64,000 nt of DNA from Gemmatimonadota bacterium (GTDB lineage: Bacteria > Gemmatimonadota > Gemmatimonadetes > Gemmatimonadales > GWC2-71-9): assembly GCA_041691295.1 (NCBI GenBank), contig JBEPVA010000001.1:6008-70007 (forward strand), given 5' to 3'. A program made the position numbers and the translations under genes. Shown here piece by piece: positions 4,389-60,924 of the stretch. The notes beneath the pieces were generated by a model, which had not been told where the DNA came from, ran no database searches, and saw only the letters and a program-made list of their open reading frames with translations. The stretch's first letter is position 1; every line of letters starts with the position of its first letter.

Positions 4389-4448
4389 TGTCCTGTGGCT
4401 ATGGAAGGCAGGAAGTTTAATCGCGACCGGAGATTTCCCAAGCATCAT

Positions 4449-17615: not shown

Positions 17616-18481
17616 CGGCCGGGCTTCCCGGCCTTGAACACCCAACTCAGCATCACCCGGCCGGTGATCGCGTCGGCCGGCGCCGTGTACGCCTCGGCGC
17701 TGATGAGCAGCCGGGGACTCGGCACGAAGCTGAAGCCGCCGTGGGCGGTGAACCGGGTCATGTTTGCCTCGATCTTCGTATTGTCGGTGGTTGAATCGGC
17801 CGTGACGTGACTGACCTGGAACCGCGGCCGGAGGAACGAAATACCGAGGCCCAGGTACGGAATGAAGCGGCCACTGGCCATCGTCCGGGCGACGCTAAAG
17901 TCGCCGCCGAACATCGTCGGCTTGAACTTGTCGTTCGAGACCTGGCTGTTGAAGCACTCGGAATTGGTGGGGCTGGCCACATCACCGGCCGAGCAGGTAA
18001 AGGCCCCTTTGACCGAGCCAAGCACGCCGAACAGCCGCAGGCGGGCCAGCCCGTTCTTGCCGGTCTGGGTGCTGCGACCGATCGCGAAGCTGACCAGATT
18101 CGACTTGACTCCGTTGACCCTGACCGGCGGAATCCAGCTCAGCTCGATGAACAGCCCCCGCTGACCGGACAGCAGCAGCCGGGGCCGGAACAGCACATTT
18201 TCCTGGTTGGTGTTGAGCGGTCCCTGGCCAGGCTGGCAGACGGTGGGGGTTCGACCGGCGGCGTTGAGATCCGGCACGTAGGTGGCCTCGAGCCCGAGTC
18301 GGATGCTGGCCAGCCGGTACGGCGCCGGCGCCTCCGCGGCATCAAAGGCGATCGGCACCATGTAATGGCCGAACAACTTGACCTCGTTCGAATTCTTGGC
18401 CGGTTTGCAGGCGTCTTGTGCCGAGGCGGCAATGGGCCAGGCGGCCGCGCCGACCAGCAGCGCGAGCAGGATCCTTCGCAT
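17612..18481 (-). CDS. secreted hypothetical protein, possible outer-membrane beta-barrel
   Basis: Signal peptide MRRILLALLVGAAAWPIAASAQ. Alternating hydrophobic strands. Family not recognised. Confidence 0.55.
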   Translation of the reverse strand: MRRILLALLVGAAAWPIAASAQDACKPAKNSNEVKLFGHYMVPIAFDAAEAPAPYRLASIRLGLEATYVPDLNAAGRTPTVCQPGQGPLNTNQENVLFRPRLLLSGQRGLFIELSWIPPVRVNGVKSNLVSFAIGRSTQTGKNGLARLRLFGVLGSVKGAFTCSAGDVASPTNSECFNSQVSNDKFKPTMFGGDFSVARTMASGRFIPYLGLGISFLRPRFQVSHVTADSTTDNTKIEANMTRFTAHGGFSFVPSPRLLISAEAYTAPADAITGRVMLSWVFKAGKPGR

Positions 18482-20543: not shown

Positions 20544-21521
20544 ATGATGAAATTCGCGCTCTTTGTGCTGCTCGGGCTTTCGATGGGCACCCTGGCGGCG
20601 CAGGTGCCGGCCGACAGCACCAGCCCCCCGGCCGACTCGGTCATCCGCCGCAAGGGCGCGACGAACCTTGAGGTGCCGATCCTGGATCACACCTTCAATG
20701 GCGAAGGCGAGTTCGTCCGGTTCAGGATGAGCGGCGGCATTGTGTACCGTGCGGTGGTGGATCGCGAGGATGTGCGCCTCATTGTCGAACCGGTGGAACC
20801 GGAGGGGCCGTCGGTGACGGTGACCGAACTGCAGCGCTTCCACGACGTCAGCGGTGAGCGGCGTTACCTGATCCGGCCGGTCGCTGATGCGGAATATCAG
20901 CTTCGGGTTCCGTTCGTCGGGTCACCGACCGACACGACGACTCGTGGCCTGCCGAACTCCGCTCAGAGCGGTGCCAGCCACTTACGGCTCTATCGCGATG
21001 ACCGGGAAACCGACCGATGGAACGCCACCGGACCGGTGGCCTGGGCTTTCGGCCTGGTGGTCTCCGGCGGCCGAGGCGGGGAATATCCGATTGCCGGTAT
21101 CCCGGCACCCAGTGGTGCATCCAGCGACATCGAGGGCTGCCTGGAGGTGAAGTACGGCCCTGGCTTCGGCGGCTATATCAGTGGATGCGTGCTCGGCATC
21201 AGCCACGAATCCCGGCCAGCCTCCAAAAGCGCCACCTGGGTATTTATCGAACCACGCCTGAGGCTGATCGGCTCCGGCAAGCGCTGGCAGCAGCGGCTTG
21301 ATGCCGGGGTGCTGCTGCGCGCCGGACTGGGCCAGATCGATGGCCTCAATCAGCAGCCCGGTGTGATAGCTCCCGGCGTCTATCTATCCTACCTCCTGAT
21401 CCATCACCAACATTGGCCCCGCCTGGTATTGGAAGGGGCGGTGCGGTACAGCTACGTGGTGCCCAGCGATCAGCCAAGCCAGACCTCGGCCCAGGGCATG
21501 GTCGGACTCGGAATCTTCTGA
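20544..21521 (+). CDS. secreted hypothetical protein, OMP-like C-terminus
   Basis: Signal peptide MMKFALFVLLGLSMGTLAAQ. Ends ..GMVGLGIF with a terminal aromatic residue. Confidence 0.6.
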   Translation: MMKFALFVLLGLSMGTLAAQVPADSTSPPADSVIRRKGATNLEVPILDHTFNGEGEFVRFRMSGGIVYRAVVDREDVRLIVEPVEPEGPSVTVTELQRFHDVSGERRYLIRPVADAEYQLRVPFVGSPTDTTTRGLPNSAQSGASHLRLYRDDRETDRWNATGPVAWAFGLVVSGGRGGEYPIAGIPAPSGASSDIEGCLEVKYGPGFGGYISGCVLGISHESRPASKSATWVFIEPRLRLIGSGKRWQQRLDAGVLLRAGLGQIDGLNQQPGVIAPGVYLSYLLIHHQHWPRLVLEGAVRYSYVVPSDQPSQTSAQGMVGLGIF

Positions 21522-26818: not shown

Positions 26819-28144
26819 TCATTCTGTCAACTCTGGAGGATTGCCGCTTGGGGGCGAATGCGGCGGTCTCTGCACCTCCATGTCAGGCTTATGAACAACC
26901 TGCATTAGTGCGCGGCCCAAGAAGCGGTCGTCAATCCCAAGTTCAAAGCGGTATTGCCCAGCGACCAGAAACCGTGGATTCCCAAGCGGGACCTTAATAA
27001 AATCTGTTGTGTCCATTCCAGAAATGTCGGAAATCACATAATTGCGGTGCGATTCAAAGACGGCAATCAACATGCCTTGGGGGTCAATTATTCGGAGCTG
27101 AACCGTGTGGCTTCCGGTGGAATCCGCAGGGATCGTCAAACGCGCCAAGAAAGACAAGTCTCCCGCTTCGACTGGAAGAAGTATGGTCTCGATTAAGTCA
27201 ATCTCGGAGAAAATAGTCATCGCGCCCCCCGGCTCGTGCCTGAACTTGCGACAGATCACAGCATAAGAGCAGTTTATCCTCAGCGCATTGATGGGCTGTC
27301 CTCCCGCACCGACGAAGTGTACAGGTTGCCCCGCAAACATTTCTATTCGGCTAAGGCTCGGATAGGTTGTAATGGCTTTAACATTTCGACCCGGCAGGTC
27401 ATAGGTGGTCGACCATTGCCCACCGTGGAAGTCCCAGCACCTAATCCGGATCGCGCTGCCGACGCCGACCAACTCGAGATGTTTTTTATCGGCCAAGCCC
27501 AGAAACCTCCCGACCCTTGTTTCACCGCGGGGAATCGCACCAACTGTCCGTTCTGCAATTGTCTCGGACAGAGGGACAACTCCGGTCATATCTCCGCCTA
27601 ACACAATGCCATCACCGGTCGCGGAGGCCGTGAGCTCGATTGGCTCATGACCGGGCGCGAATAGATGACACTCCCATCTGCTCACCGATCCTGTCTCACC
27701 CAGATTGGTTACGGCAACGGTGGCGGCGAGCGCCATGGCTACCCGTCCATCCTGATATACGGCGTGGCCCGGCATAACTCTGTCCGGGAAACTCAGAATG
27801 AGATTCGGGCGTCGGGTTAGCTTCGCCAGCTCGCGCTCCAAGTTCTCGTTTTTCACTTCCGCGGACGTCAGAAGGTTGTACCAGCCGCGGAAGCTCCGTC
27901 CGACCAGCGCAGCAACGATGATTAAACCGGTAATCCAAATGCTATAAGATTGGGCTCTCTGCTCGTCCACTTGGCCATAGTACCTCTTCCAGTTTAGGAG
28001 CCAAATGGCGAGTGCGCAGAGGCCAGCGAACAAGTCGGCAGAGCCGCTTTGAGCGCTAAGTGACGCAGCGATCCATCGTCGTGCAATCGACGGTCTATTA
28101 CTCGTTGGTGGCGTGTCAACGCGACGACTGTTTGTTAGTGGCAA
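26819..28144 (-). CDS. membrane-anchored protein of unknown function (lower-GC gene)
   Basis: TTG 28144 lies 8 nt after GAGGAGG. 441 aa. Two N-terminal TM helices, a short coiled segment EVKNENLERELAKLTRR, then ~330 aa with no motif recognised. Confidence 0.6.
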   Translation of the reverse strand: MPLTNSRRVDTPPTSNRPSIARRWIAASLSAQSGSADLFAGLCALAIWLLNWKRYYGQVDEQRAQSYSIWITGLIIVAALVGRSFRGWYNLLTSAEVKNENLERELAKLTRRPNLILSFPDRVMPGHAVYQDGRVAMALAATVAVTNLGETGSVSRWECHLFAPGHEPIELTASATGDGIVLGGDMTGVVPLSETIAERTVGAIPRGETRVGRFLGLADKKHLELVGVGSAIRIRCWDFHGGQWSTTYDLPGRNVKAITTYPSLSRIEMFAGQPVHFVGAGGQPINALRINCSYAVICRKFRHEPGGAMTIFSEIDLIETILLPVEAGDLSFLARLTIPADSTGSHTVQLRIIDPQGMLIAVFESHRNYVISDISGMDTTDFIKVPLGNPRFLVAGQYRFELGIDDRFLGRALMQVVHKPDMEVQRPPHSPPSGNPPELTE

Positions 28145-31450: not shown

Positions 31451-31888
31451 CTACATGTCAGAGGTGATGCTGGCCGCACAAATGGTCCACCGGTCCGCCT
31501 TGCGGACGAAGTTCACGCTCAATTCAGCCCACGCATTCCCGGCCCGCGAATACTGGAAGACCACTGCTGCACTGTCCGGATGCCGCTGGGTTATCTGCTC
31601 CGCAATGAGCTTGGCCAGATTGGGGTGAGCAAGCACAGTATCATTGGCAACCAGGGCGAGCCCTACAGTCATTGCGCGCTCATTGCAGCTTAATTCGAGT
31701 ACAGTCGATGTATCGCGCTTTGCAGATGCATTCAAGAATTGCCCTAACACGAAGGTTAAGGTGACAATCGGCTCTCCGCCTGGAAGCGGGCCTGAGTGTC
31801 GAGTCCTACCACTCGCGCAATCCATCAGAGACAGCCCTATGATCGAGAAGAGGCCGGCAATTCGAAGTCTGGCTCGGCGCCGGCTCAT
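31451..31888 (-). CDS. exported lipoprotein, candidate immunity protein for the orphan rhs toxin
   Basis: The start overlaps the orphan toxin stop by 4 nt. Leader MSRRRARLRIAGLFSIIGLSLMDC. No family recognised. Confidence 0.55.
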   Translation of the reverse strand: MSRRRARLRIAGLFSIIGLSLMDCASGRTRHSGPLPGGEPIVTLTFVLGQFLNASAKRDTSTVLELSCNERAMTVGLALVANDTVLAHPNLAKLIAEQITQRHPDSAAVVFQYSRAGNAWAELSVNFVRKADRWTICAASITSDM

Positions 31889-32715
31889 GGGGTTCCCCTA
31901 TCATCGCAACGCTTGTCCTGGCCCGCAGCAGCGTGATATTGGTTTTCTACGCGGATCGCACGGTTCTGGTAAAGCAGTCTCGCGCGAGGGTCTGATCCGG
32001 TATAGGCTCCGGTCGAGCTTTCCGTCTGGTGACCGAGGAGTTCATGCGCGGCCATTACGCCGAGGTCAAACGTGTGTTGGCCGTTTGGATCCTCGGGACA
32101 TGCCGCGTAATCGACCATTTGCATCATATCGATTGTCGAGGCAAACCCAGCGGATGAGGACCGCCCATTTCCAATGGTCACGGTAAGCGTGTGGTCCTTG
32201 TCGTCGTTGATCAATTCTCTAAGAGTCTCCTGGAGTCTTTCGTACCCCTTCCCCCCTTGGGGGATGGAACCAGTGGCACAGTGATTCTTGTCCACCAAGA
32301 TGATCGTGTTCGTGGCCTTTTCGGCAGCTTTCTGAGCTAGCCGCTGCTCGCCAACGTCTTTTCCAGTAAAGCATAGCTTCAGCCCAAATGGATCAGTCAA
32401 TGAAGACGGATTGTTCCCGTTGAACTGATAGAGGTTGAGGCCTTCGCTAACACCAAGCGGAGCCTCCTGCAGCCAGCGCCCGGTACGGCTGTCGTAGGCC
32501 CGGTTGCGGAACAGGGCGATCTCGGGGGTTTCCGGAACATTCATCCGGCTGCTCTGGAAGCTGGCGGAATTGGCGTTCCCGCCGGTCCACTGCCAGCCGG
32601 TGGTGATCCCGAGGTTGTCGGGATTGCTATCCAGCGAGCCATTGGAGTCGCTCGTCGCCAGCAATCCACCTCGACCGTCGGTGACGTAGAAGTACGAGCG
32701 CCAGGCGGCAAAGCC
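31885..32715 (-). pseudogene. orphan rhs C-terminal cassette (5'-truncated core end plus HELLGH metallopeptidase-like toxin)
   Basis: AWRSYFYVTDGRGGLLATS...RNRAYDSRTGRWLQEAPLGV..LNLYQFNGNNP..DPFGL parallels the end of the full RHS gene. It shares the identical 28-nt cctgcagccagcgcccggtacggctgtc. A unique ~165-aa tail carries AAHELLGHQ. There is no own start; the upstream junction is about 32712-32720. Confidence 0.75.
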
Positions 32716-32894
32716 CCCGCGAGGAGCTGATCCTTCCGCGCGGTGATCTGACCGGGATGGACATCAAAGCGCTTGGCCAACTCGGCCAGCGTGCTTTCCG
32801 CCCGGACGGCGGCCAGGGCCACCTTGGCCTTCAATGCGGGGGCATGGGTACGACGGGGACGTTTCGACTTCAGGAGCTCCTCGGCTATGGGCAT
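32716..32894 (-). mobile_element. IS3-family orfA N-terminal remnant (~60 codons)
   Basis: MPIAEELLKSKRPRRTHAPALKAKVALAAVRAESTLAELAKRFDVHPGQITARKDQLLAG resembles the HTH N-terminus of IS3 OrfA. No orfB and no inverted repeats were seen. Confidence 0.6.
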
Positions 32895-32993
32895 ACTCTC
32901 GCCGGGGGGGGCTCGCGTGTCCACTGATCCCGCCTGTTCAGAATACCGGAGCCACTTCTCTATGTCCTGCACACGACCGAAATGCGGTCACGC

Positions 32994-33677
32994 TTATGGA
33001 GCAAACGGCGGACTTTCTCGATGCGACCAGGCCACGAGTTCGCCATGCGAAAAAGTGAGAGCGTACGCCATGGCGACCCACGATCTCTCAAAACCACCGA
33101 GGTTTCTTGTTAGCACTGTAATGACAGCAGTTGCCCCTTTGTCAGAGTTGTCAAGAGGATGGTCGAATGGCCAGTCCCCGGGACGGGCGAGATCCCACGC
33201 GGCCATGACACCCGGCCGCGTAGTGGAGTCCACACCCGGGAGAACAATCTCAACTGCGCCGAAAGGATCGGCCAAGAGCGCAAGGCATTTCACTTTGTCC
33301 TGGTTCGAACGACACCCGGAGCCGCTCGTGACTATCTTCGCGATTGCTCCAAGGTCTTGCTGCTGAAACCCGCCGGCCCGAAATACTGAATCGCCTGCAT
33401 GGACGAGCAAGAACACTTGATCGCTCGCTCCAATTCGCCAGACAGTAAATTCATTCGAAAGGTGCGGGCCTCGTTCAATCCTCAATCCTGCAGGATCCAC
33501 AACCGCGTCCTGGGTCACGCTAGAAAGCGAAAGCTCATTCGTCGCGTTTTGGCTGACCAGTAGTCTGATACGCTCGATCGTGCCTAGGGACTGTGCCTTC
33601 AACACCGACTGTCCCGGTATAGCAAGTAGAGAGGCGATGGAGAATGCCTGCAGAACACACGATTGCTTTAACATCAA
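32994..33677 (-). CDS. exported protein, candidate cognate immunity for the RHS toxin
   Basis: Its start overlaps the RHS stop by 4 nt. Signal peptide MMLKQSCVLQAFSIASLLAIPGQSVLKAQS. Lower GC. Confidence 0.6.
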   Translation of the reverse strand: MMLKQSCVLQAFSIASLLAIPGQSVLKAQSLGTIERIRLLVSQNATNELSLSSVTQDAVVDPAGLRIERGPHLSNEFTVWRIGASDQVFLLVHAGDSVFRAGGFQQQDLGAIAKIVTSGSGCRSNQDKVKCLALLADPFGAVEIVLPGVDSTTRPGVMAAWDLARPGDWPFDHPLDNSDKGATAVITVLTRNLGGFERSWVAMAYALTFSHGELVAWSHRESPPFAP

Positions 33678-36600
33678 GGCTGCCTTTGCCCGTATTCGGG
33701 TCCGAGTTCCGCACGAATGATATTCTCATTCGCCAATGTACAAGGATCCCCATCTGTACAACCAGTCCCTGCTGATGTCACCGTTAGGGCGTGAGCTGTT
33801 TCATGTCCGAGAACGATTACGCCATCAACCTTAACGTGAATTCGACCCTCCGAACCCGCGAAGTCAGACGGTTTAATCTGGATTTCGACCTGATTGTGCA
33901 CAACTTGTCCAGACGTGGCCCCCGAGAATTTGCCTCGCGGCAATGGATCCTTCGGACCAAGCTCGACGATATGATAGACGATCTTTGATTTTTCGAGCTT
34001 GGCCAAATTGGCGTTACAAGTACCCGACTTTTGTCGGCATAGATCCACATACATCTGTGCTCCTGCTTCGACATCCAATTTTAGACCGAAGGGGTCGGTG
34101 TACATGGCCGGATTGTTCCCATTGAACTGATACAGGTTGAGCCCCCCGCTCACGCCGAGGGGGTCTTCCTGCAGCCAGCGCCCGGTACGGCTGTCATACG
34201 CCCGATTTCTGAACATTGACACCTCGGGCGTCTGCGGAATGTTCATGCGACCAGCCGCAAATGACGTGGAGTTCGACGTACCCCCAGAATACTGCCAGCC
34301 AGATACCGTGCCGTTGTTATCCGGATTGCTCTGAAGATTCCCGGTGGAGTCACTGCTGGCCAGCAGCCGTCCCTGGCCATCGGTGACGAAGTAGTACGTC
34401 CTCCATTCGGGGAAGCTACCGACAACTGGGTACTGGCCGACAGCCATCAGCGGATCGTCGAGGCCTGGACCCTGGATCACCTGGTAGACTCGGGTGGCAA
34501 AGATTCCCGCAACGTTGTCGCCATCATACGCAAGCTTCGGAGCCGCCCCGCACGGATTGGACAATTGGCCGTCCGGGTAATACTGACAGCTGTTCAGACC
34601 AGTAGTGTTGAAAGCTAGATTGGTTTCTGCCCAGGCCATCCCGGACATCCGGCCACTGGCGTCATAGAACTGAATCCTTGAGCGGGTATCGAGCCCGGCC
34701 CCACCACCACCAGCATGGGCGCTGTCGATTTCCCGGGCCCCGTTGGCGTCATAGCTCATCAGGATGAGAGGATAGCGCGGGACCCCTGAGGTGGAATCAG
34801 CCATCGAGAGTACACGGTTATGGCCTGTGGCAACCTGGAAGTTCTTCAGGTCAACGTAGGCCCCACCAGAATCCTTTGACCAGACCATGTTCCCTGACGC
34901 GTCGTATTGCTTCCATTGGCTGACATAGTCGAGCCGGCTCTGCTGCTTGGTCAGCATGTTGCGCCAGTTGTACAAATAGTCGTCATTTTCATTGAGACTT
35001 GATGACGTGTGGCACTCGGAGCCCATCCAGGTCTGAGCGCGATCGCAGGTCATGACTCGATTGGTCAAACGGCCTATTGCGTCGCGATTGTCGCTGAGGC
35101 TGAATTTGAGAATGTCGCCGTGCATGTTGCTGGCCGGGGGTGGATCGCCAGGCAGAGAAACGACACGTCTCACGACCCCTCGAATGTCATGATCATAGGC
35201 CACCACCATGTGCCTGACGGGATAATATATCGAGTCCCGCCTCCCGAGCTCGTCGGGTATGAATGTAAAGGTCTGGCTGGTCGCCCAGGCGGCCGTATTC
35301 CCTCTTACTAGATCGAGAAATGTGGTAATCGTGTATAGGTCGCCTTGCGAATAGTAGCCGTAGGCCAGACTGTCCCGTACCGGGTTGTGGTTATTGAAGT
35401 CGTTCGATTGAATCGCGTGGTACATGGAGGTGCGAGCACCTCCCAGGTCATACGTATAGCGTATCGTATCAATTGGAGCGAACGCGGATGTACTCGCGAT
35501 GATCTTGCTCTTCAACGCACCGTCGGCAAAGTAGGTCTGAATTAGTTTGGCATTCCTATTCTGCGTCGTCAGCACTCGCCCGATCAAGTCATAGGTGTAG
35601 TTAGTTGTATCCCCGGGCGTGGTTAGAGAGTTCCTCGTGACCGATCCAAACCACCTGCTCATCAGACGACCAGAGGCGTCGTAGCTAAAATGGATCACCT
35701 GACCAGTCCGGAGGGTGGTGGTTTGAAGCAACCCATCCGTTGAATAGAATGAGATGTTGGATGCCCCGTAATCGTCCTGTTCGCTGCTCAACAGCGCGCG
35801 GGCATCCCTCCGGTAAGTGCGTGCGACTGCGCGCGGGTCAGATACCTGTGTAATCCCGACCCGGCCCTGAGTGTAGTTGGTTATCAGACTGTCCGGGATC
35901 GTATCTTGTGACCATTCGTTCAGAGTGCAGATGACCTGAGCCGCATTGCAGGTTGACAGACTGGCCAGCGCCGACGGGATGAGGTAGTTGGGCACCGGCT
36001 TGGTAACAGCCCGGGCCTGGGTTACTCGATTTAGTGCATCGTACTTGTACGACGTCCGCATTTCGGCTGGGTCATATATATCAAGAGCGCGACCTACATT
36101 GTCGTTGACGTATCCGGTTGCCATCCCTGCGGCATCCCAGGTCACCTGCAGATTCCCCACTGAGTCGTATCTGAATCTCACGGTCTGGTCGATCACCGAA
36201 GTCGTCCCGAAGTACTGGGACCAGGTGGTCACTGACTTATCAACCACGCTGTCCAAGACACCCCGGTTGAGGCCGGCACCGTGGACGGCGTATTTGGTGA
36301 TGTGAGTTCGCGGGTCGAGCGTGTGCTCCAGAAATCCCAGCGAGTCATAGAAAAAGCTCGTGACCCGCCCCATCGGATCGGTGACGGACTTGGGAGAATC
36401 GGGCACCAGGCTGGTGGAAACAGTGTCATAGGCATAGGTGGAGGTCCGATTGCCACGCCCGTCGAGCGCCTTGGTGCTGTCCTTGACCTGGGTCAAGTTG
36501 CCGCGGGCATTCCACGACATCCGGATGACCCGACCCGTGGCCCCCGCCGTCGTCGGGTGCGGATAGACCACCTTGGTGACGAGGGCAGGGGTCTTGGTAC

Positions 36601-38407
36601 TGTCATGGTAGAACCAGGTCTTGGTGCCCAACCCCAAGTGCATTGACCGAGTGGGCTGCCCGAACCGGTCCACCCAGAAGGTGACGGCATCGGACAGCCC
36701 GCTCAGGGGGCCATCATATTGAGTCGTCAGCCCCAGGCTATCGGTCGTCAGGGCCAGTGCCCCCAGCCCGTTCTCGTCCCAATTCGTGATATACGAGGTC
36801 TGGAACTGAGCCCCGGCTGAATCAGCCTGCACCTCCACCTTGGTCAGTCTGGCGGAGTTGGCATAGGTGAACCTGGTGACTGCGGTATCAGCCAGGGTGG
36901 TATGCGCCTGTCTGGGATAGGACCGCCAGGTCATCCGGCCACCGGCGTCGTACCCGAACCGAGTGGTGTCGGTGGCACCCGGCTGAATCAGGCTGGTCAG
37001 CCGGCCACTTGCGATCGTCGCCTTGAGCTGTCGCCCGGTCGGATCGGTAATCCCCTGGAACACCGCCGTCCCGCTCCATTGCAGCGTGTATTTCAGGGAG
37101 TCGGTGCCGTTCGGCGGCACCACGATCGAAATCAGACGGGTTTGGCCATTGACGGTGCCCCAGTTGAAGGTGGTCACCGCCTTGGCACGATTCGTCGTTG
37201 ACCGGTGACGCCCGGTCGGGTCGAATCGGACCGATGCGCCATGCTTGAGGTTGCGGAGATACCACTTGCCCCCGGTGCCGGTGTAGTAGATCAGGCTATC
37301 GGGCGCATCCCCCGGCGCCGCCTGGAATACGGTGTCCCCCGGCAGTTTCTTGCTGTAGACGCGCAGCGAGCCATCGCCCGCTGCCCAGATGCGCTTCGTC
37401 GAGTCCCCTGGGACGGTCAGGATCTGCTCCACACCCAGGAGCGACCATCCCTGCCCGTACTCGCTGGCCGAGCGATTCAGCACCAGAACTTTGCCGGTGG
37501 CGGTATCGATCCTCGGACCCGACGCATAGGTATTCGTGACGATGAGCGTGTCGGGATAGTAGCCAGTCGCAATCCCCGTCATCGATCGACCGAAGACGAC
37601 CTGTTGGGAATCTGACCACGGCGCGCAAGGCGAGCCGGTGCAATTCGAATTGTAGGCCGGCGGGGCCATGAAGAACGAGTCCTTGAGCCCCGCCAGTTTC
37701 AGCACTCCGATGACATTGGTCGGCAATGCGATGGTGCTGGCCTCCACCACCCGCGCGGGCACCAGCACCAGCCCGACCGCAGCCGCGGAGTTATAGTAGA
37801 GGGTGGGACTCCGGTCCTTGCCGAGAGTCCGGTAGGCTGGCAGGCTGGCGGTCACGAAGAGATCTCCACACGAAATCCCCGCACTCTCCCCGGCGCCGAG
37901 CGTCAGGCAGAGACCCCGATCAACGTTGGCCACATTGGTATCGACCAGCCGGATCGACGCGTACCCGCTCGCGGCCACGACAATGGTCCGCGATCGGTTG
38001 GGCCCGCCGGCATCGTTCACGGAGACCGAGGCACCGGCGTATCCGGAACCCGTGGTCGCTGAGGTGGCATAGGTGATGGTAAGGGTGATGACCTGACCCG
38101 CGGTCAACGTCGCCGTGGCGGGCGTCACCGAGCTGCAGGTCACGGGGCCGCTCTGGACGCAGCTCATATCCACCGACCGGCCGCCGGTCGACACATTCTT
38201 GATCTGTTCCTGAAAGGTGAACGGTCCCGAACTCGGCAGGCGGTTGGGCTCGTATTGCGGCGTGCCACCCACGAAAACCACGTCATCGCCGAGGGCGTTG
38301 GTGTGAACTTGTGCGGCAATCGGTCCTGGCGCCAAGGCAATAAGAAGCCCCAAGAGCCTCAGCGAGACCCCACCAGACCAGACGGGTCCGCCCGCGCGAC
38401 GTGTCAT
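33674..38407 (-). CDS. RHS / YD-repeat polymorphic toxin with C-terminal HExxH metallopeptidase-like domain
   Basis: 1577 aa. Sec signal. Many YD repeats (FGYDAGGRM, YKYDALNRV, FRYDSVGNL, FSYDASGRL, YTYDLIGRV). Core end is RNRAYDSRTGRWLQEDPLGV...DPFGL. The ~135-aa tip contains LGHETAHAL. Confidence 0.9.
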   Translation of the reverse strand: MTRRAGGPVWSGGVSLRLLGLLIALAPGPIAAQVHTNALGDDVVFVGGTPQYEPNRLPSSGPFTFQEQIKNVSTGGRSVDMSCVQSGPVTCSSVTPATATLTAGQVITLTITYATSATTGSGYAGASVSVNDAGGPNRSRTIVVAASGYASIRLVDTNVANVDRGLCLTLGAGESAGISCGDLFVTASLPAYRTLGKDRSPTLYYNSAAAVGLVLVPARVVEASTIALPTNVIGVLKLAGLKDSFFMAPPAYNSNCTGSPCAPWSDSQQVVFGRSMTGIATGYYPDTLIVTNTYASGPRIDTATGKVLVLNRSASEYGQGWSLLGVEQILTVPGDSTKRIWAAGDGSLRVYSKKLPGDTVFQAAPGDAPDSLIYYTGTGGKWYLRNLKHGASVRFDPTGRHRSTTNRAKAVTTFNWGTVNGQTRLISIVVPPNGTDSLKYTLQWSGTAVFQGITDPTGRQLKATIASGRLTSLIQPGATDTTRFGYDAGGRMTWRSYPRQAHTTLADTAVTRFTYANSARLTKVEVQADSAGAQFQTSYITNWDENGLGALALTTDSLGLTTQYDGPLSGLSDAVTFWVDRFGQPTRSMHLGLGTKTWFYHDSTKTPALVTKVVYPHPTTAGATGRVIRMSWNARGNLTQVKDSTKALDGRGNRTSTYAYDTVSTSLVPDSPKSVTDPMGRVTSFFYDSLGFLEHTLDPRTHITKYAVHGAGLNRGVLDSVVDKSVTTWSQYFGTTSVIDQTVRFRYDSVGNLQVTWDAAGMATGYVNDNVGRALDIYDPAEMRTSYKYDALNRVTQARAVTKPVPNYLIPSALASLSTCNAAQVICTLNEWSQDTIPDSLITNYTQGRVGITQVSDPRAVARTYRRDARALLSSEQDDYGASNISFYSTDGLLQTTTLRTGQVIHFSYDASGRLMSRWFGSVTRNSLTTPGDTTNYTYDLIGRVLTTQNRNAKLIQTYFADGALKSKIIASTSAFAPIDTIRYTYDLGGARTSMYHAIQSNDFNNHNPVRDSLAYGYYSQGDLYTITTFLDLVRGNTAAWATSQTFTFIPDELGRRDSIYYPVRHMVVAYDHDIRGVVRRVVSLPGDPPPASNMHGDILKFSLSDNRDAIGRLTNRVMTCDRAQTWMGSECHTSSSLNENDDYLYNWRNMLTKQQSRLDYVSQWKQYDASGNMVWSKDSGGAYVDLKNFQVATGHNRVLSMADSTSGVPRYPLILMSYDANGAREIDSAHAGGGGAGLDTRSRIQFYDASGRMSGMAWAETNLAFNTTGLNSCQYYPDGQLSNPCGAAPKLAYDGDNVAGIFATRVYQVIQGPGLDDPLMAVGQYPVVGSFPEWRTYYFVTDGQGRLLASSDSTGNLQSNPDNNGTVSGWQYSGGTSNSTSFAAGRMNIPQTPEVSMFRNRAYDSRTGRWLQEDPLGVSGGLNLYQFNGNNPAMYTDPFGLKLDVEAGAQMYVDLCRQKSGTCNANLAKLEKSKIVYHIVELGPKDPLPRGKFSGATSGQVVHNQVEIQIKPSDFAGSEGRIHVKVDGVIVLGHETAHALTVTSAGTGCTDGDPCTLANENIIRAELGPEYGQRQP

Positions 38408-38704
38408 AAGGAACTCCGATGGGAGGCGGTGGAGGAACCGGGCCGCTCAGCCACTCATCCGGCCAAGCACGACAGACCGCACATTCAGTTGACTCACGAA
38501 TCGACGCCACGATATTGCGTCGTGAGCCTCCGGAGAACAACTACCGTCGATGGTAGGGAAGAAAAACCGAACAAGATGCCATTCCGAGAACAGCGGCGGG
38601 AGCAGGATTTTTCGTCGTTCCAGGGCTTCCGGGATCAGGCCATCTCACTCTCTGCGAAACCCGGCTGGCGGAATCTGCGCCGATAATCACAGGAGCTCCT
38701 CTTC

Positions 38705-39094
38705 ATGGCAACCACCACCGACCAGAACAAGCAGAACGTCTGGGCCTTCTACGACCTGGCCTTCAACCAGCAGCAGCCCGAGCAGGCGGTCCAGCGCTAC
38801 CTCGGCGCCAGCTACAAGCAGCACAACCCGATGGCCGCCGATGGACCCGAGCCGTTCATCGGCTTCGTCCGCTGGATCACCGGTGAGAATCCCAAGCTGC
38901 GATTCGAGAAAAAGCGGATCATCGCCGAAGGGGATCTGGTCACGGTGCACTCACACCTGGTCCCGGCCCCCGGCGCCCGCGGCACCGCGGTCATGGACAT
39001 CTTCCGGCTGGACGGGGACGGCAAGATCGTGGAGCACTGGGATGTGCTGCAGGAGGTGCCCGAGACGGCCAAGAACGGCAATACGATGTTCTAG
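38705..39094 (+). CDS. SnoaL-like / NTF2-fold protein
   Basis: 129 aa. Pattern ends ..DIFRLDGDGKIVEHWDVLQ. Confidence 0.75.
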   Translation: MATTTDQNKQNVWAFYDLAFNQQQPEQAVQRYLGASYKQHNPMAADGPEPFIGFVRWITGENPKLRFEKKRIIAEGDLVTVHSHLVPAPGARGTAVMDIFRLDGDGKIVEHWDVLQEVPETAKNGNTMF

Positions 39095-39127: not shown

Positions 39128-40285
39128 CTAGTTCGGAGGAAAGGCGAAGGCGCGGATCAGATACTTCGTGAAATAGTCTGTATAGAGGTAGTAAAAACGC
39201 TGCAGCATCGCGAATGCGATGCCGAGGAACAGTGGTGGGATAACAAGAAGCGCGAAACGCTCATCCACTGAAGTCCCACCAAGTAGGTCACCTTGGGAAT
39301 ACCACCAGATGAGTCCGTATAGGAAGGCAAGGTAGAACGCAGTCGCGATGTTCCTGGCAAAGCTGTATAACCGCAACCAGTTCAGCAGCGCCGGTACAGT
39401 TGCCGGATCGGACCGGCGCAAAAATATGAAGGCATTCCAGAAGGCGGAAGAGCCGTCACCGGTCCAGGCCGCACCAAGGAGCTTTGAAAGATTCTCGACA
39501 AATTTCTCCTGCGTGAGAGAATCGATCAAGCGAGTACTTTCTGATGCTGCGCCCAAGATCCTGGTAATCACCCGAGAAGGCCAAGAAAATGCACGTAAGG
39601 CCGTCCGCGCGGCCAATAGGGCCCAGTTCGCGATAGACAACTGAAGAAGCTGCGCCCGCCTATAGGAATCAGCCGTTGAGAAAAGCTTCGTTATCCCCCT
39701 ACACACAATCGCAGCTACAAGGACTATTGCAAGCACGAGAGCGGTCGTTTGAATCGGGTCTCCATTCCAAGTTGGCAGCAAATTCTCAAGGGGCGCCGGG
39801 ATCAGGACCCTAAGCGGCTTGGCACTCGCTGGGCTGAGGTAGCGAACCACAAGATAGAAATTCAACCAGAACATCATCCCACGGTAGAAGTCACGGCCGT
39901 CGAGCTGGTCTTGGCTTGGCTTGTCTCTCCCCAAGAATTGAAGTATCGGGTACCCGTGTCCTTTCGCGATGTACATGCGGTCAATTGTTATTGCGGAAAT
40001 AGATGCAATCACGTGGCCGACGACGTAGGCGAGTAGAAGCAGTGAACCAACGATCAGGGCGTCGGTGAGCCAGGAGCTACTTGTGTTAACTAAGAAAAGC
40101 GCACCAACCGTGGAGTAGAGGGGCGTCTTAGGCGCACAGTGTGCTGCACAGACGTGTGCCGCCGCAAGCCATTCGAAGGCCGTCACACACGCAAGAAAAC
40201 ACGCCCCCGGAACGAAGTATCCAAGGACGTCATACGCGTCAAACGGAGATTTGGCCGCTGAAATAGCCGAGTCGTCTGTACTCAA
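39128..40285 (-). CDS. polytopic membrane protein of unknown function (lower GC)
   Basis: TTG 40285. 385 aa. At least 6 hydrophobic helices. No motif recognised. Confidence 0.6.
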   Translation of the reverse strand: MSTDDSAISAAKSPFDAYDVLGYFVPGACFLACVTAFEWLAAAHVCAAHCAPKTPLYSTVGALFLVNTSSSWLTDALIVGSLLLLAYVVGHVIASISAITIDRMYIAKGHGYPILQFLGRDKPSQDQLDGRDFYRGMMFWLNFYLVVRYLSPASAKPLRVLIPAPLENLLPTWNGDPIQTTALVLAIVLVAAIVCRGITKLFSTADSYRRAQLLQLSIANWALLAARTALRAFSWPSRVITRILGAASESTRLIDSLTQEKFVENLSKLLGAAWTGDGSSAFWNAFIFLRRSDPATVPALLNWLRLYSFARNIATAFYLAFLYGLIWWYSQGDLLGGTSVDERFALLVIPPLFLGIAFAMLQRFYYLYTDYFTKYLIRAFAFPPN

Positions 40286-48504: not shown

Positions 48505-51500
48505 ATGCATTCACTCCATGTTGGCCCGCCGCGGGCTGCCGCGGCCATCGGGCTTTTCTGCCTGGCCATTCCCAGCCTGCTCCTGGCGCAGCAGGGCCGG
48601 CTGAGCGGCCACATCACCGACAAGGAAACCGGCAAGCCGCTGGAAGCGGCCCAGATCCTGGTCGTGGGTACGACGCTGCTCGAGACCTCCGGCGCCGACG
48701 GCCATTACACCTTCCGCAGCATCGCGCCCGGGCATTACCAGGTCCGGGTCATACGGATCAGCTATGCCGCCAGGCTGGATTCGGTCACCGTCGCGCCCGG
48801 TGAGTCCGCGGTGCTCGATTTTGCGATGAGCAGCGCCCCGGTGCAGCTCGATGAGATCGTCTCGACCGCCACTGGTCAGCAGCGCAAGCTTGAGATCGGC
48901 AATGTGGTGTCCAAGATCGACGCCGCTTCGATCACCAAGGAGGCGCCGGTCACCGAAATCGGGAACATCATCTCGGGACGGGTGGCCGGTGTCCAGGTGC
49001 TCAAGAGCGGAGGCACCACCGGCACCGGCACCAGGATCCGGATCCGCGGCTCCAACAGTCTCTCGCTATCCAATGAGCCCCTCTACTATATCGATGGGAT
49101 CCGGATGGAGAGTTCGTCATCCGGGCTCTCGCTGGACATCGGCGGCGGCATCGGTGGCGGCTCGACCTCCCGGATCAACGATATCAATCCCGACGATATC
49201 GAGTCGATCGAAATCGTGAAGGGACCCGCCGCGGCCACCCTGTACGGCATCCAGGCCGCCAATGGCGTGGTCCGGATCACGACCAAGAAGGGGACGGCCG
49301 GCCGGGCCAAATGGAATGTTTCCACGGAGGGGGGCTCGGTCAGCGATCACAATGCCTACCTGCTCAACTATTTCCCGACCTTCGACATCCTGCCTACCGC
49401 CAGCCCCGAATACCTGGCCAACGGCTTTACCTGTACCCTGCAGGATCAGTTCCTGGGCAACTGCAATATCACCGGCCTCACCAAGTACTCCCCGCTGGTC
49501 AACAAGGACACCAAGCCGCTCAAGGCCGGTTTCCGCCAGCAGTACAACACCAGCGTGTCCGGCGGCACCGACCAGGCCAACTACTTTCTGGCGGCTGGCT
49601 ACGAGAGCGAAGATGGTGTGTTCCGCCTGCCTAAAATGGAAGAGGACTCGGTACGCCAGGCCAACGGCGGGATCATGGCCAGCCAGATCCGGCCCAACAC
49701 CCTGCGGAAGCTGTCGGTTCGGGCCAACGTCGGCGCCAACGTTTCCAAGACGGCGGATATCCAGGCCACGATGGCCTATGTCAGCAGCACCACCCGGCTG
49801 GTCGAGAACGACAACAGCTTCCTGACCATTACCGGCAGCGCCGAGGCCAGCGCCAACACCCCGGATATCAACCGGGGATGGTTCTATACCCCGGCGCAGC
49901 TGTTCGCCGAACTGGCGGAGCAGAACATCGGCCGGTTCACCGGCGGATTGACCACCAACTGGCGGCCCCGGACCTGGCTCACTACTCGGGCCACCGTGGG
50001 GTTTGATGCCACGGCGGAGAACGACAAGAATTTCTTCCCGACCGGCCAGGTGGCAGACTATTCCAACAACCTTCGAGGTGTGCTGCGGCTGAACAAGGCG
50101 AACATCACCCAGACCTCGATCGACCTGGCCGGCACGGCCAACTACAAGTTCAGCGAGGCTCTCACCGCCAAGACCTCGGTCGGGGCGCAGTGGTTCCGCA
50201 ACCTGGTCCGCGGCACGCTTGTGACCGGGACCGGATTGTCGCCGGGGCAGGAAAACCTGGCGGGCTCGTCGGTCGAGGCACGGGATACGTCCTTTGAATC
50301 GCGCACCGCCGGCGCCTTTGTCGAGGAAGCGGTGGCCTACAAGGAGCGCCTGTTCCTGACTGCGGCCGCACGGCTCGATGGCGGCAGCTCGTTCGGCAAG
50401 AACTTCCAGGATGCCATCTATCCCAAAACCAGTGTGTCCTGGCTGACCTCCAACGAACCGTTCTGGCACCTGTCGTGGATGAACACCTTCCGGCTCCGGG
50501 CCGCCTTGGGCGCCTCGGGCCAGATTCCCGGCGCCACCGACGGGCTCAAGTCGTATGTCGGCGTGCCCGGGGTGAAGAATGGGCAGGGATTCAGCGGGGT
50601 ACAGCTGTCCAATAGCGGGAACGACAACCTCAAGCCGGAACGGTCCACCGAGTTCGAAGCCGGGTTTGATGCCGGGCTGGCCCACGACAAGGTCACGGTC
50701 GAATTCAGCTACTACACCAAGACCACTTCGGACGCACTGATTGCGGCCGAGGTGGCCGGTTCGGGCGGCACCCAGCAGATCCAGTTCCGCAACCTGGCCC
50801 GGGTCCGCAATCATGGCCTCGAGCTGGCCATCAGCGCGGCCCCGATCAACACCCCGAATTTCAGCATGGATTTCACCATCAGCGGCTCGATCACCAAGAA
50901 CAAGGTGCTGGCCCTCGGCGCCGGCGACACGGCCCTGGTGTTCGGCTTCTACCAGCAGGACCGGCCCGGCTATCCAGCGGGCGGATTCTGGGGTCTGCCG
51001 CTGCTCGGATACAGCGATGCCAACCATGACGGGATCATCGACCAGTCCGAGATCCGGGTCGGTGACCACGCGGTGTACCAGGGCAGCGCGCTGCCGACCC
51101 GGGAGCTGGCGCTCAACAGCGGGTTCAACTTCTTCCACGACCGGATCCGGCTGGCCAGTCAGTGGGACTATCGCGGTGGCAACATGGTCGACAACTCGAT
51201 GGAAAACTTCCGCTGCAGCGCGGTGTTCAACTGCCGGGCCGAGTTCGACCGGACGGCACCGCTCGAGGACCAGGCCAAGGCGCAGGCCGCCCTGGTGTAC
51301 GGTGGCAACCAGTTCGCATTCATCGAACCGGGCTGGTTCATCAAGTTGCGGGAAGTGTCGCTGACCTTCTACGGCACGCCAAAGATTGCCCACGCCCTCG
51401 GGACCTCCAGCATCAGCCTGACGCTGGCCGCCCGGAACCTGCTCACGATCACCAACTACACCGGCGTCGACCCCGAGGTCAACGCCTTTGGCCAGGACAA

Positions 51501-51573
51501 CTTCGCCGCCAGCGATTTCGAGTCCCAGCCGCAGGTGCGGTATTTGATCGCCCGCATCAACGCCAGCTTCTGA
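48505..51573 (+). CDS. SusC/RagA-type TonB-dependent outer-membrane transporter
   Basis: Signal peptide. Carboxypeptidase-regulatory-like N-domain (GHITDKETGKPLEAAQILVVGT). Plug (DIESIEIVKGPAAATLYG). Barrel ends ..ARINASF. Confidence 0.9.
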   Translation: MHSLHVGPPRAAAAIGLFCLAIPSLLLAQQGRLSGHITDKETGKPLEAAQILVVGTTLLETSGADGHYTFRSIAPGHYQVRVIRISYAARLDSVTVAPGESAVLDFAMSSAPVQLDEIVSTATGQQRKLEIGNVVSKIDAASITKEAPVTEIGNIISGRVAGVQVLKSGGTTGTGTRIRIRGSNSLSLSNEPLYYIDGIRMESSSSGLSLDIGGGIGGGSTSRINDINPDDIESIEIVKGPAAATLYGIQAANGVVRITTKKGTAGRAKWNVSTEGGSVSDHNAYLLNYFPTFDILPTASPEYLANGFTCTLQDQFLGNCNITGLTKYSPLVNKDTKPLKAGFRQQYNTSVSGGTDQANYFLAAGYESEDGVFRLPKMEEDSVRQANGGIMASQIRPNTLRKLSVRANVGANVSKTADIQATMAYVSSTTRLVENDNSFLTITGSAEASANTPDINRGWFYTPAQLFAELAEQNIGRFTGGLTTNWRPRTWLTTRATVGFDATAENDKNFFPTGQVADYSNNLRGVLRLNKANITQTSIDLAGTANYKFSEALTAKTSVGAQWFRNLVRGTLVTGTGLSPGQENLAGSSVEARDTSFESRTAGAFVEEAVAYKERLFLTAAARLDGGSSFGKNFQDAIYPKTSVSWLTSNEPFWHLSWMNTFRLRAALGASGQIPGATDGLKSYVGVPGVKNGQGFSGVQLSNSGNDNLKPERSTEFEAGFDAGLAHDKVTVEFSYYTKTTSDALIAAEVAGSGGTQQIQFRNLARVRNHGLELAISAAPINTPNFSMDFTISGSITKNKVLALGAGDTALVFGFYQQDRPGYPAGGFWGLPLLGYSDANHDGIIDQSEIRVGDHAVYQGSALPTRELALNSGFNFFHDRIRLASQWDYRGGNMVDNSMENFRCSAVFNCRAEFDRTAPLEDQAKAQAALVYGGNQFAFIEPGWFIKLREVSLTFYGTPKIAHALGTSSISLTLAARNLLTITNYTGVDPEVNAFGQDNFAASDFESQPQVRYLIARINASF

Positions 51574-56582: not shown

Positions 56583-56665
56583 GCCTTTTCGCTTTTCGCT
56601 TTTCGCTTTTCGCTTTTCGTTGTTCGCCCTCTCACCTCTTACCTCTTACCTCTCACCTTTTACGA
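56583..56665 (-). repeat. composite heptamer tract (GTGAGAG family then GAAAAGC family on the sense strand), overlapping a stop codon
   Basis: The plus strand reads CTTTTCG x4-5, then ccctctc acctctt acctctt acctctc. Positions 56626-56656 are 29/31 identical (as reverse complement) to 25522-25552. Confidence 0.8.
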
Positions 56666-60811: not shown

Positions 60812-60924
60812 GATTTGGCGCCAAACGCCGGTCGTTTCAATGGTTGACAGGTAAATGAACTGGCTTGCCAACTCAGCATGACCAGCCAACCTTCAAGGCC
60901 ACGCCTTCCCACCCTCATATCCAG

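Follow-up and report, generated by a model that had tools for sequence, protein, structure and literature searches.

The RHS gene of this locus raises two questions: how a toxin with a Sec-type leader leaves a diderm cell, and in which compartment its tip acts. RHS toxins have been studied mostly as T6SS cargo. The source is a Gemmatimonadota MAG from soil, and the window, the whole 64-kb stretch of DNA analysed here, encodes a TonB-dependent receptor, so the host was considered diderm. Pfam and NCBIfam profiles of T6SS and T2SS families matched none of the ~45 window ORFs scanned, in agreement with the preliminary description, which had reported no T6SS genes in the window. The lower GC content described there was also found, at 0.54-0.60 across 31-36 kb vs about 0.65 in the flanks. 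The features of the locus are as follows:

31451..31888, minus strand: partner of the orphan tip, 145 aa, 4-nt overlap, N-terminal signal-like segment (ORF; hydropathy 2.26)
31885..32715, minus strand: displaced orphan rhs-CT (TIGR03696, 43.9 bits; DNA-level core alignment)
32721..32894, minus strand: IS transposase OrfA remnant, ~58 aa, HTH part (IS66-like TnpA; junction read)
32994..33677, minus strand: translationally coupled, putatively exported partner, 227/226 aa, new family (ORF, homologues, signal peptide)
33674..38407, minus strand: rhs gene, 1577-aa RHS/YD-repeat polymorphic toxin with a predicted Sec signal (ORF; RHS_repeat; Rhs_assc_core; orthologue P0008)
33677..34081, minus strand: 135-aa C-terminal toxin tip, K1443-P1577 (family alignments, AF2, BFVD, sub-threshold Peptidase_M91)
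34082..34219, minus strand: RHS-associated core end, aa 1397-1442, with YDSRTGRWLQEDP...DPFGL (TIGR03696)
37787..37921, minus strand: conserved pre-shell 'plug'-like motif DRGLCLTLGAGESAGISCGDL...LPAYRTLGKDRSPTLYYNS, aa 163-207 (N-terminal alignment)
37976..38281, minus strand: Ig-like/Fn3-like β-sandwich, about aa 43-144 (AF2 and Foldseek)
38312..38407, minus strand: signal peptide, aa 1-32, predicted cleavage between IAA and Q33 (hydropathy; conservation pattern)

The architecture proposed earlier for the RHS protein (a 1577-aa YD-repeat protein with a signal peptide, an Ig-like region, no PAAR or VgrG region, and a DPFGL core end followed by a ~135-aa HExxH tip) was borne out in every part. 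The ORF matched Pfam RHS_repeat in four stretches (E 1.1e-17) and TIGR01643, with a faint match to TEN_YD-shell; its orthologue P0008 comprises 1572 aa. The leader has a basic n-region followed by a hydrophobic 12-mer (KD 2.30). Between P0008 and the RHS protein the leader is divergent and the mature part is conserved from Q33 on, and the same layout, a signal peptide ending in A before Q, is common to P0021 and P0022. The signal peptide was called using sequence heuristics and this conservation pattern; a Sec signal peptide, as predicted here, is among the features by which T2SS substrates are recognised. The AF2 model of the whole N-terminus was poor (pLDDT 48.8), and the β-sandwich part alone was used, an all-β segment with pLDDT of 68-88. 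Its Foldseek PDB matches (best E 3e-6) included RbmA Fn3, Caf1M, α2-macroglobulin MG, cucumisin Fn3, and FixG E-set domains. The DRGLCLTLGAGESAGISCGDL...LPAYRTLGKDRSPTLYYNS block showed the highest conservation in the N-terminal alignment and may act as a plug, AF2 confidence in that region being low. TIGR03696 (Rhs_assc_core) scored 49.5 bits (cut-off 32.5) over aa 1397-1442, where the core end reads D1438-P-F-G-L1442 directly before K1443, leaving the 135-aa tip. By analogy with established RHS/TcC biology, autoproteolysis would occur after L1442. No Pfam or NCBIfam match to PAAR, prePAAR, or VgrG was found in the protein at E<=0.1, and neither the protein nor its neighbours gave a Pfam match to SpvB, TcA, TcB N-terminal, or β-propeller domains.

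The tip carries the motif H1535-E-T-A-H1539 together with conserved E1561-N1562, R1565, and the cysteine pairs C1457/C1464 and C1550/C1556; the glutamate lies 22 residues past the second histidine of HExxH. A word-index homologue search with the tip recovered P0001 alone, which is its closest relative (65% identity), an orphan fragment without a promoter and with no partner gene after it. The tip-family search gave 15 matches among 1.84e9 representatives, 12 of them real, and each real relative with upstream sequence sits after a DPxGL-type core end. In the family alignment (13-14 members), H96, E97, H100, E122, R126, C111, and C117 are invariant, and N123 is found in most members. The AF2 model of the tip was confident (pLDDT 93.5, pTM 0.89); in it, HExxH falls within helix 90-101 and E122 within helix 116-129. 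Its fold matches in BFVD were SprT-like, M48, IrrE, lethal-factor, and matrixin zincins (top probability 0.99, TM 0.51). The top PDB fold matches, deuterolysin and MMP-11, were not significant, and PDB sequence and profile searches with the tip and the tip profile gave no match. Among Pfam families, Peptidase_M91 came first for six of the 13 members, all sub-threshold: the gathering threshold of PF14891 is 25 bits and was reached by none of the 13, the best score being 23.1 bits (P0020, spanning profile positions 26-138 of 176). The profile search of the tip called for in the preliminary description thus named M91 as the nearest Pfam family, at 11.9 bits for the window tip, which is below the threshold. 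The tip family nevertheless carries the HExxH and downstream [DE]N of Peptidase_M91/Tox-HopH1, a signature given as 'HExxH, [DE]N' and linked to RHS proteins (PMC3482391). The invariant HExxH and glutamate, the confident model, the zincin fold matches, and the sub-threshold M91 scores all support the zincin-like nature originally ascribed to the tip. It is predicted to be a minimal gluzincin-type metallopeptidase, apparently distantly related to Peptidase_M91/Tox-HopH1. Its cysteine pairs may form disulfides or, alternatively, act as metal ligands.

The partner gene starts either at TTG, giving 227 aa, or at ATG one codon later, giving the 226 aa of public gene calls (P0002). Depending on this start, the overlap with the TGA stop of the RHS gene is 4 nt or 1 nt, so that the 4-nt overlap described previously holds for TTG only, while the downstream gene and its signal peptide stand. 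A word-index search with the partner returned only itself, and its relatives at 30-35% were found later by context. Homologues lie directly after the tip in four of the five complete loci, namely the window, L003, L004, and L006 (29-35% identity for the latter three, E 1e-15 to 1e-33); in L005, a signal-peptide ORF begins after the tip. Every partner homologue examined has a predicted signal peptide, and three of the four partner proteins carry a C-x(8-10)-C pair. Searches of Pfam, NCBIfam, and PDB, the last also with the partner profile, were empty; the suggested search of domain libraries with the 227-aa protein therefore yielded no match. Judged by its sequences, the partner is a new protein family that travels with the tip. 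The exported partner of the preliminary description is accordingly real and conserved, consistently bears a signal peptide, and accompanies the tip at each of four independent loci. A cognate gene immediately 3' and orphan cassettes, by which RHS polymorphic toxins are recognised, were both found here, and a neutralising role is predicted for the partner.

The toxin/partner pair reported earlier was recovered, but it is not a lone pair, as it is directly followed by a displaced orphan rhs-CT with its partner and by an IS remnant. The orphan rhs-CT comprises a core end of ~110 aa without ATG, the DPFGL motif directly before K, and a 164-aa tip with HELLGH...VEN; its core part closely matches the main rhs gene in a DNA-level alignment. 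Membership of the orphan tip in the main tip family was set aside as unproven, the similarity being at motif level only (BLASTP/hhalign E 0.15, then 0.006, probability <=6%), and it had no match in PDB sequence and profile searches. The 145-aa orphan partner had no family match in Pfam or NCBIfam and is unrelated to the 227-aa partner. The IS remnant, whose IS66-like TnpA match was weak (E 8e-4, below the cut-off), abuts the truncated orphan core. The cassette and the IS scar may represent material for tip swapping by recombination.

Relatives of the RHS N-terminus were sought in several ways. A word-index search returned P0021 and P0022 alone, no locus came from an earlier genome-contig scan based on an alignment of two sequences, and a genome-contig profile scan with a four-sequence alignment, in which DRGLCLTLGAGESAGISCGDL...LPAYRTLGKDRSPTLYYNS was the pattern, gave eight loci. 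All eight belong to Gemmatimonadota, and the rhs locus appears to be a member of a Sec-exported family specific to this phylum. The related RHS genes have the core end in common and differ in their tips. A sister RHS with a PD-(D/E)xK-like tip is followed by a partner without a signal peptide, one with a Cys/Gly-rich tip by a 2-TM partner, and L012, with a zincin-like tip, by a signal-bearing partner; the latter was ruled out as a member of the 227-aa family, to which it is unrelated. Partner localisation thus tracks tip type, with cytoplasmic partners for nuclease-like tips and membrane partners for membrane-type tips, a pattern in favour of a zincin that acts in the envelope and of immunity in the periplasm. 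The envelope action suggested earlier is strengthened by this correspondence among the sister loci and by the conserved cysteine pairs of tip and partner.

The delivery route, previously described as unclear, now has a concrete lead in related loci that lie beside T2SS and σ54-activator genes; the statement on missing T6SS genes in the window stands. Within the sequence stretches examined, a T2SS cluster adjoins rhs in two of nine related loci (L003 and L016), which may not be phylogenetically independent. At one of these loci, the P0008 gene is divergent from an adjoining σ54 activator and a gspE-G-F...K...D cluster that is complete, and in L016 a σ54 activator and a gspE homologue are located 4.6-6 kb downstream. 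A small σ54 activator also adjoins RHS in L015 and L012 (four related loci in all). No σ54 activator was found within the 64-kb window, and the σ54 promoter consensus had no match upstream of the rhs gene (38408..38720), its window-wide counts being below chance. The σ70 promoter and terminator scan of the sequence was at chance level. The T2SS and σ54-activator neighbourhoods of the relatives agree with published T2SS-linked Rhs toxins. In X. perforans, the activity of the RHS bacteriocin Bcn-A is lost in an xpsD mutant (PMC7259588), and Rhs families linked to gspG occur in Xanthomonas and Ralstonia (bioRxiv 10.1101/2025.05.08.652813).

Taken together, the locus is an rhs polymorphic-toxin locus whose product is probably Sec-exported rather than T6SS-loaded, with a tip cut off inside the shell and an envelope zincin blocked by a periplasmic partner. 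The RHS aspartyl autoprotease would cut the tip off after L1442, and the tip would stay enclosed in the shell. The RHS protein would then be released or displayed, its Ig-like domain mediating target binding, and the zincin would act on a protein or peptide substrate in the envelope or periplasm of rival bacteria. Binding by the 227-aa periplasmic partner would block the zincin in producer cells and their kin. A more specific version can be put forward tentatively: a σ54-controlled T2SS of Gemmatimonadota might release entire RHS cocoons that serve as bacteriocins, either diffusible or displayed on the surface, with a lineage-specific Ig-like targeting domain, the disulfide-stabilised mini-zincin might cleave an envelope protein or peptide in the competitor periplasm, and a new periplasmic inhibitor family might protect kin. 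Were this so, no T2SS-RHS delivery route would have been defined earlier outside Proteobacteria, and an exported immunity family would be matched with a metallopeptidase RHS tip. The locus and its relatives come from a soil phylum that has been little studied and form a small set in which to test how signal-peptide RHS proteins exit diderms and enter targets, with one conserved Sec/Ig-like scaffold, swappable tips, partner localisation that predicts the compartment of action, and T2SS and σ54-activator genes that recur as neighbours. With the tip, a rare family of zincin toxins would be gained, and with the partner a new family of exported inhibitors.

The same toxin/immunity logic could operate without T2SS release, the RHS protein staying cell-associated and contact-dependent, as WapA does, or leaving in outer-membrane vesicles. 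We consider this rather unlikely, although T2SS genes are absent near rhs in the window, L007, L015, and L017, the N-terminal Ig-like domain would also suit surface display, and WapA, as cited within PMC7259588, is an established Sec-dependent RHS protein acting by contact. The wall anchoring of WapA is, however, a monoderm trait, and a diderm needs some outer-membrane step; T2SS clusters adjoin two related loci in different arrangements, and Bcn-A is a diderm RHS protein that is active in the supernatant and T2SS-dependent (PMC7259588). The role of the 227-aa protein can also be read differently, as an accessory factor (periplasmic chaperone, activator, or co-secreted component) instead of immunity. 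Bcn-A activity requires extra ORFs, one with a signal peptide (PMC7259588), no immunity protein is listed for Tox-HopH1/MPTase tips by Zhang et al. (PMC3482391), the partner matches no known immunity family, and the nearest tip homologue, P0001, has no partner. Against this, the position 3' of the tip, the translational coupling, and the co-variation with tip type form the rhsI signature, and the more divergent zincin tip of L012 has a different exported partner, as expected of fast-diversifying immunity and not of conserved machinery. Partner loss at P0001 would be tolerated, since P0001 is a promoter-less orphan fragment. An accessory role is accordingly judged unlikely.

Two further readings concern other delivery systems and targets. 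An anti-eukaryote, Tc-toxin- or teneurin-like YD protein, whose NleD/HopH1-like zincin cleaves host signalling proteins, would agree with the nearest Pfam family, M91, which comprises T3SS effectors acting in eukaryotic cells. It is very unlikely given the dedicated conserved exported partner gene and the sister nuclease-like and membrane-type tips with matching partners which, with the orphan cassettes, are a hallmark of inter-bacterial polymorphic toxins; TcA, TcB, and SpvB domains are also lacking, and the Tc-toxin reading was dropped as no defining domain occurs in the protein or its neighbours. Hardly any weight is given to T6SS cargo loaded via a cryptic PAAR-less adaptor, the apparent signal peptide being a transmembrane or prePAAR-like helix; there has been a claim of PAAR-less Rhs effectors, but the RhsP paper was retracted. 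PAAR, VgrG, Hcp, and Tss were not found in the protein, the window, or the called genes of L003 and L007, the leader has SPase-I architecture with the A/Q junction conserved in four family members, and the conserved exported partner and cysteine pairs fit Sec export. The T6SS reading was likewise dropped, no defining domain being present in the protein or window.

The locus, in its preferred reading as Sec-exported, can be compared with several known systems. The T6SS PAAR-Rhs effectors (e.g. RhsA, Tse-type Rhs; PMC8636562) likewise have a YD shell, a C-terminal DPxGL motif for autocleavage, a polymorphic tip that is encapsulated (here by prediction), orphan cassettes, and core extensions of low GC, whereas the present protein has a predicted cleavable Sec leader, no PAAR/prePAAR/VgrG-interaction region, and no T6SS genes nearby. 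The C-terminal domain of VgrG2b from P. aeruginosa is, as predicted here, a zinc-metallopeptidase antibacterial toxin acting in the periplasm and neutralised by the cognate immunity protein PA0261 (PMC6899460). VgrG2b is a VgrG fusion delivered via the H2-T6SS with an immunity family unrelated to the 227-aa partner, and it is missing from the 50 best PDB fold matches to the tip. Tox-HopH1/Peptidase_M91 (NleD, HopH1) and Tox-MPTase1-5 are, as the tip is predicted to be, small α+β zincins at the extreme RHS C-terminus with HExxH and [DE]N; the tip differs in falling below the M91 threshold, in its conserved cysteine pairs, and in its dedicated exported partner, no immunity protein being listed for those families in 2012. 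Zhang et al. (2012) included 'T2SS' (signal peptide) among polymorphic-toxin trafficking modes (PMC3482391). WapA/WapI of Bacillus subtilis has the same Sec signal peptide, YD/RHS shell, polymorphic C-terminal toxin, and cognate immunity gene (a candidate here) immediately downstream; WapA is, however, a monoderm protein and cell-wall anchored, with tRNase tips and cytoplasmic immunity, in contrast to the diderm setting, predicted zincin tip, and exported partner here. Bcn-A and the gspG-linked Rhs proteins are also diderm RHS toxins outside the T6SS with a downstream immunity gene (a candidate here), the secretion of the former being tied to T2SS genetically (PMC7259588) and that of the latter by synteny (bioRxiv 10.1101/2025.05.08.652813). 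The present system differs from them in its Gemmatimonadota host, its unrelated Gemmatimonadota-restricted Ig-like N-terminal family, its tip and immunity families, and T2SS adjacency in some relatives only, not in this window. Because Sec/T2SS-type RHS toxins have already been described and relatives adjoin T2SS, the system is less unusual than the preliminary description implied. The RHS locus belongs to an already known class of bacterial weapon and not to a new kind.

The main rhs gene encodes a 1577-aa protein with matches to Pfam RHS_repeat (1.1e-17) and, at aa 1397-1442, to TIGR03696 (Rhs_assc_core). Its core end (...FRNRAYDSRTGRWLQEDPLGVSGGLNLYQFNGNNPAMYTDPFGL1442) is followed from K1443 by a 135-aa C-terminal domain (the tip) containing H1535-E-T-A-H1539. 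The immunity candidate (the partner) is encoded directly 3′ of it.

33674..38407, minus strand: main rhs ORF, 1577 aa (ORF list)
32994..33677, minus strand: partner ORF, 227 aa (ORF list)

The junction reads ...CAG CCT TGA, with TTG ATG in the +2 frame. The 4-nt overlap given in the preliminary description holds for a TTG start of the partner; from the ATG of the public gene calls (226 aa), it shrinks to 1 nt, and translational coupling is implied by either start. The GC content over 31-36 kb (0.54-0.60) was lower than in the flanks (~0.65). The ~45 window ORFs scanned against Pfam include a gene for a TonB-dependent receptor, which indicates a diderm host, besides genes for housekeeping enzymes and peptidases. 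Synteny with the window extends to L011, a closely related MAG contig (92-95% nt identity) that carries the rhs gene at the same position; thus, the window gene is no private recent insertion. Close to rhs on its upstream side, a low-GC stretch (0.54) holds a 385-aa multi-TM ORF without a Pfam match (39128..40285, minus strand); in L011, ~575 bp replaces this 1.7-kb stretch, which marks it as an indel that separates the two close relatives. Another low-GC pocket, at 27-28 kb (GC 0.55) and a few kb away from the rhs locus, contains a 441-aa ORF (26819..28144, minus strand) with a DUF6941 domain.

In the leader of the RHS protein, a hydrophobic core follows a basic n-region, and the predicted cleavage is at IAA/Q33. 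The 1572-aa orthologue P0008 has a divergent leader, whereas from Q33 on the two sequences are highly conserved; the same leader layout was observed in the related proteins P0021 and P0022. AF2 modelled aa 30-340 poorly as a whole (pLDDT 48.8), with an all-β part at ~aa 43-144 reaching pLDDT 68-88, and Foldseek matched the N-terminal model to Fn3/Ig/E-set sandwiches (RbmA, Caf1M, α2-macroglobulin MG, and cucumisin Fn3), none of the matches being PAAR-like. Pfam profiles for PAAR, VgrG, and Tc toxins gave no match to the protein at E<=0.1. The domain architecture initially described, with a signal peptide, an Ig-like region, YD repeats, and a tip but no PAAR or VgrG region, was confirmed. When one genome per species was scanned, the N-terminal architecture was recovered at eight loci, all Gemmatimonadota.

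Nearly all signal peptides predicted in the window end in A/Q, with Gln at +1.

2217..4448, 16146..17645, 17612..18481, 20544..21521, 48505..51573, 56646..57965, 58280..60889, 60865..62322: window genes with A/Q-ending signal peptides

The same junction is present in the RHS protein, its partners, and their homologues in the related loci L003-L006. The pattern resembles the 'Bacteroidetes Q-rule' (pyroglutamate N-termini), which was described as Bacteroidetes-specific, with Gemmatimonadetes not mentioned (PMC5837995); the Gemmatimonadota MAG of the window appears to follow it.

By word-indexed search, P0001 was the sole relative of the tip (65% identity). An exhaustive HMMER search with the tip over 1.84 billion representatives gave 15 matches, of which 12 were real and three were discarded as repeat artefacts. 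Wherever upstream sequence is retained in a real relative, the tip is preceded by a core end of the DPxGL type. A family-level zincin active-site signature is present: in the 13-sequence alignment (residue 1 = aa 1440), C18, S22, C25, G57, H96, E97, H100, C111, C117, E122, and R126 are invariant. The AF2 model of the tip was confident (pLDDT 93.5, pTM 0.89) and comprised β-strands, two N-terminal helices, helix 90-101 with the HExxH, and helix 116-129 with E122, which corresponds in the predicted structure to the gluzincin arrangement. Foldseek found no significant match in PDB (top: deuterolysin and MMP-11), and the leading BFVD matches were almost all zincins (SprT-like, M48, M61, IrrE, lethal factor, and matrixin), the best with a probability of 0.99, TM 0.51, and E 8e-3. 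Pfam Peptidase_M91 (NleD/HopH1 'effector protein') was the top family in 6 of the 13 members, with a best score of 23.1 bits, covering most of the domain, against a cut-off of 25. The zincin-like peptidase proposed at the outset is supported by the invariant residues and the model; the tip is probably a zincin, rare and divergent, that stands near the HopH1/M91 clade but misses the curated threshold for formal membership. Tox-HopH1 was described as a zincin tip linked to RHS proteins, its signature being 'HExxH, [DE]N', together with Tox-MPTase1-5, noted to be Wss1-like in size (Zhang et al. 2012, PMC3482391).

The tip of locus L012 (4761..5228) is a distant family member (hhalign probability 96%, E 4.7e-9, full-length alignment) without the first Cys pair. 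Its motif, HEVYGH, has a one-residue insertion (HExxxH); zinc-motif spacing thus varies inside one tip family. P0001 (L001 331..1275, soil metagenome) is an orphan core-end-plus-tip fragment, and a convergent DUF4331 gene begins ~50 bp past its stop.

By context retrieval, the tip is directly followed by a partner homologue in L003 (33% identity, E 2e-32) as well as in L004 and L006; the L006 tip is only ~35% identical to that of the window. The exported partner is conserved: N-terminal signal peptides, reported earlier for the window gene, were found in 4/4 partners, and a C-x(8-10)-C pair in 3/4; the mature window partner is predicted to start at Q29/S30. In L005, a signal-peptide ORF begins after the tip, where the contig end is reached. 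The exception is L001, with no partner gene after the tip, which is there a promoter-less orphan fragment. Other tips are borne by sister genes that share the Sec/Ig-like scaffold:

L012: zincin-like tip, then a signal-bearing partner unrelated to the 227-aa family
L014: Gly-zipper/TM-like tip
L015: hydrophobic segment and PD-(D/E)xK-like tip, then a 148-aa partner without signal peptide
L016: different tip, cytoplasmic-type partner
L017: Cys/Gly-rich tip, 88-aa two-TM partner

In these sister genes, partner localisation tracks tip type, which is the behaviour of immunity proteins. For a family matching nothing in Pfam, NCBIfam, or PDB, a role as an accessory factor instead of immunity could be considered, and against this pattern it is improbable. 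An anti-eukaryote role of the RHS protein, suggested by M91 as a family of T3SS effectors with eukaryotic targets, is very improbable beside a conserved exported partner. The match of tip and partner compartments is the strongest comparative argument for the envelope or periplasm as the probable site of zincin action, as originally suggested, and the conserved Cys pairs of the tip would fit an oxidising compartment.

The pair itself is real. The preliminary description missed an orphan cassette and an IS remnant directly downstream.

31451..32972, minus strand: whole stretch of orphan tip, 145-aa partner, and IS remnant
from ~32715, minus strand: start-less rhs core-end fragment (TIGR03696, 43.9 bits), its DNA aligning closely with the main core end up to DPFGL
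~32721..32894, minus strand: IS transposase OrfA remnant, ~58 aa, weak IS66-like TnpA match

Past DPFGL, the fragment continues into a different 164-aa tip with HELLGH...VEN, overlapped by 4 nt by the 145-aa ORF, which has a hydrophobic signal-like N-terminal segment. HExxxH is the DPP3/M49-type spacing. The comparison of this tip with the main tip family gave E 0.006 at a probability of only 6% (hhalign), which does not establish kinship. The module is a classic displaced 'orphan' rhs-CT/rhsI cassette, and similar tip/partner cassettes occur in L012 and L015. Orphan cassettes or rearranged stretches of other loci are:

L015 15224..16636
L012 6721..7613
L016 15419..18896

In L016, two IS110-family transposases separate rhs from the σ54-activator and gspE genes. 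The orphan cassettes and IS110 copies point to active rearrangement near rhs genes in the family.

No T6SS or T2SS components were found among the ~45 window ORFs scanned against Pfam, in agreement with the reported lack of T6SS genes, and tblastn of a Gemmatimonadota T2SS cluster gave no match in the window. The P0008 gene (L003) has as its divergent neighbours a small σ54 activator gene and a T2SS cluster that is complete (GspE, GspG, GspF, pseudopilins, GspK, and secretin). The order in L016 is rhs, the two IS110 transposases, an activator of the same type, and, at the locus end, a GspE homologue (47% identity); gspE directly follows the activator in both loci. In L015, the activator is directly upstream of rhs; in L012, it lies 5 kb downstream. 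It is an enhancer-binding protein of ~315-345 aa with AAA+ and HTH_8 only and no sensor domain.

L003 8632..9633: small σ54 activator gene
L015 8612..9646: small σ54 activator gene
L016 19141..20088: small σ54 activator gene
L012 10200..11159: small σ54 activator gene

Neither T2SS genes nor the activator were seen near rhs in the window, L007, and L017, and the region upstream of the window rhs gene gave no match to a σ54 promoter. By a rough estimate, the chance that a random gene falls within ~6 kb of a T2SS cluster, taken as one 12-kb cluster per genome, is <1%; adjacency in 2/9 loci would then be of the order of 1e-3 if independent. This is a suggestive lead on the route, short of proof. 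Cell-associated or vesicle delivery, with which the T2SS-free neighbourhoods are compatible, is unlikely but keeps a real share of the probability beside the L003 and L016 arrangements. Cryptic T6SS loading is scarcely credible for a Sec-leader protein with no PAAR or VgrG profile match. In the favoured T2SS reading, the protein would be exported by Sec and, as a folded cocoon, would pass the T2SS; autoproteolysis would occur after L1442, the Ig-like domain may bind the target, the zincin would act on an envelope substrate, and the periplasmic partner would inhibit it.

The preliminary description was essentially right, and every piece has its place in the framework already known for polymorphic RHS toxins. 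At the family level, the novelty lies in a scaffold confined to Gemmatimonadota, a rare clade of zincin tips, and a family of exported partners; the σ54-activator/T2SS neighbourhood is a useful lead. Signal-peptide RHS toxins have been classed as 'T2SS' (Zhang et al. 2012, PMC3482391), and the RHS bacteriocin Bcn-A of X. perforans is active in the supernatant and lost in an xpsD mutant (PMC7259588). In Xanthomonas and Ralstonia, gspG-linked Rhs families were described, with T2SS secretion putative there (bioRxiv 10.1101/2025.05.08.652813). A zinc-metallopeptidase toxin acting in the periplasm with a cognate immunity protein is known from the T6SS pair VgrG2b/PA0261 (PMC6899460).
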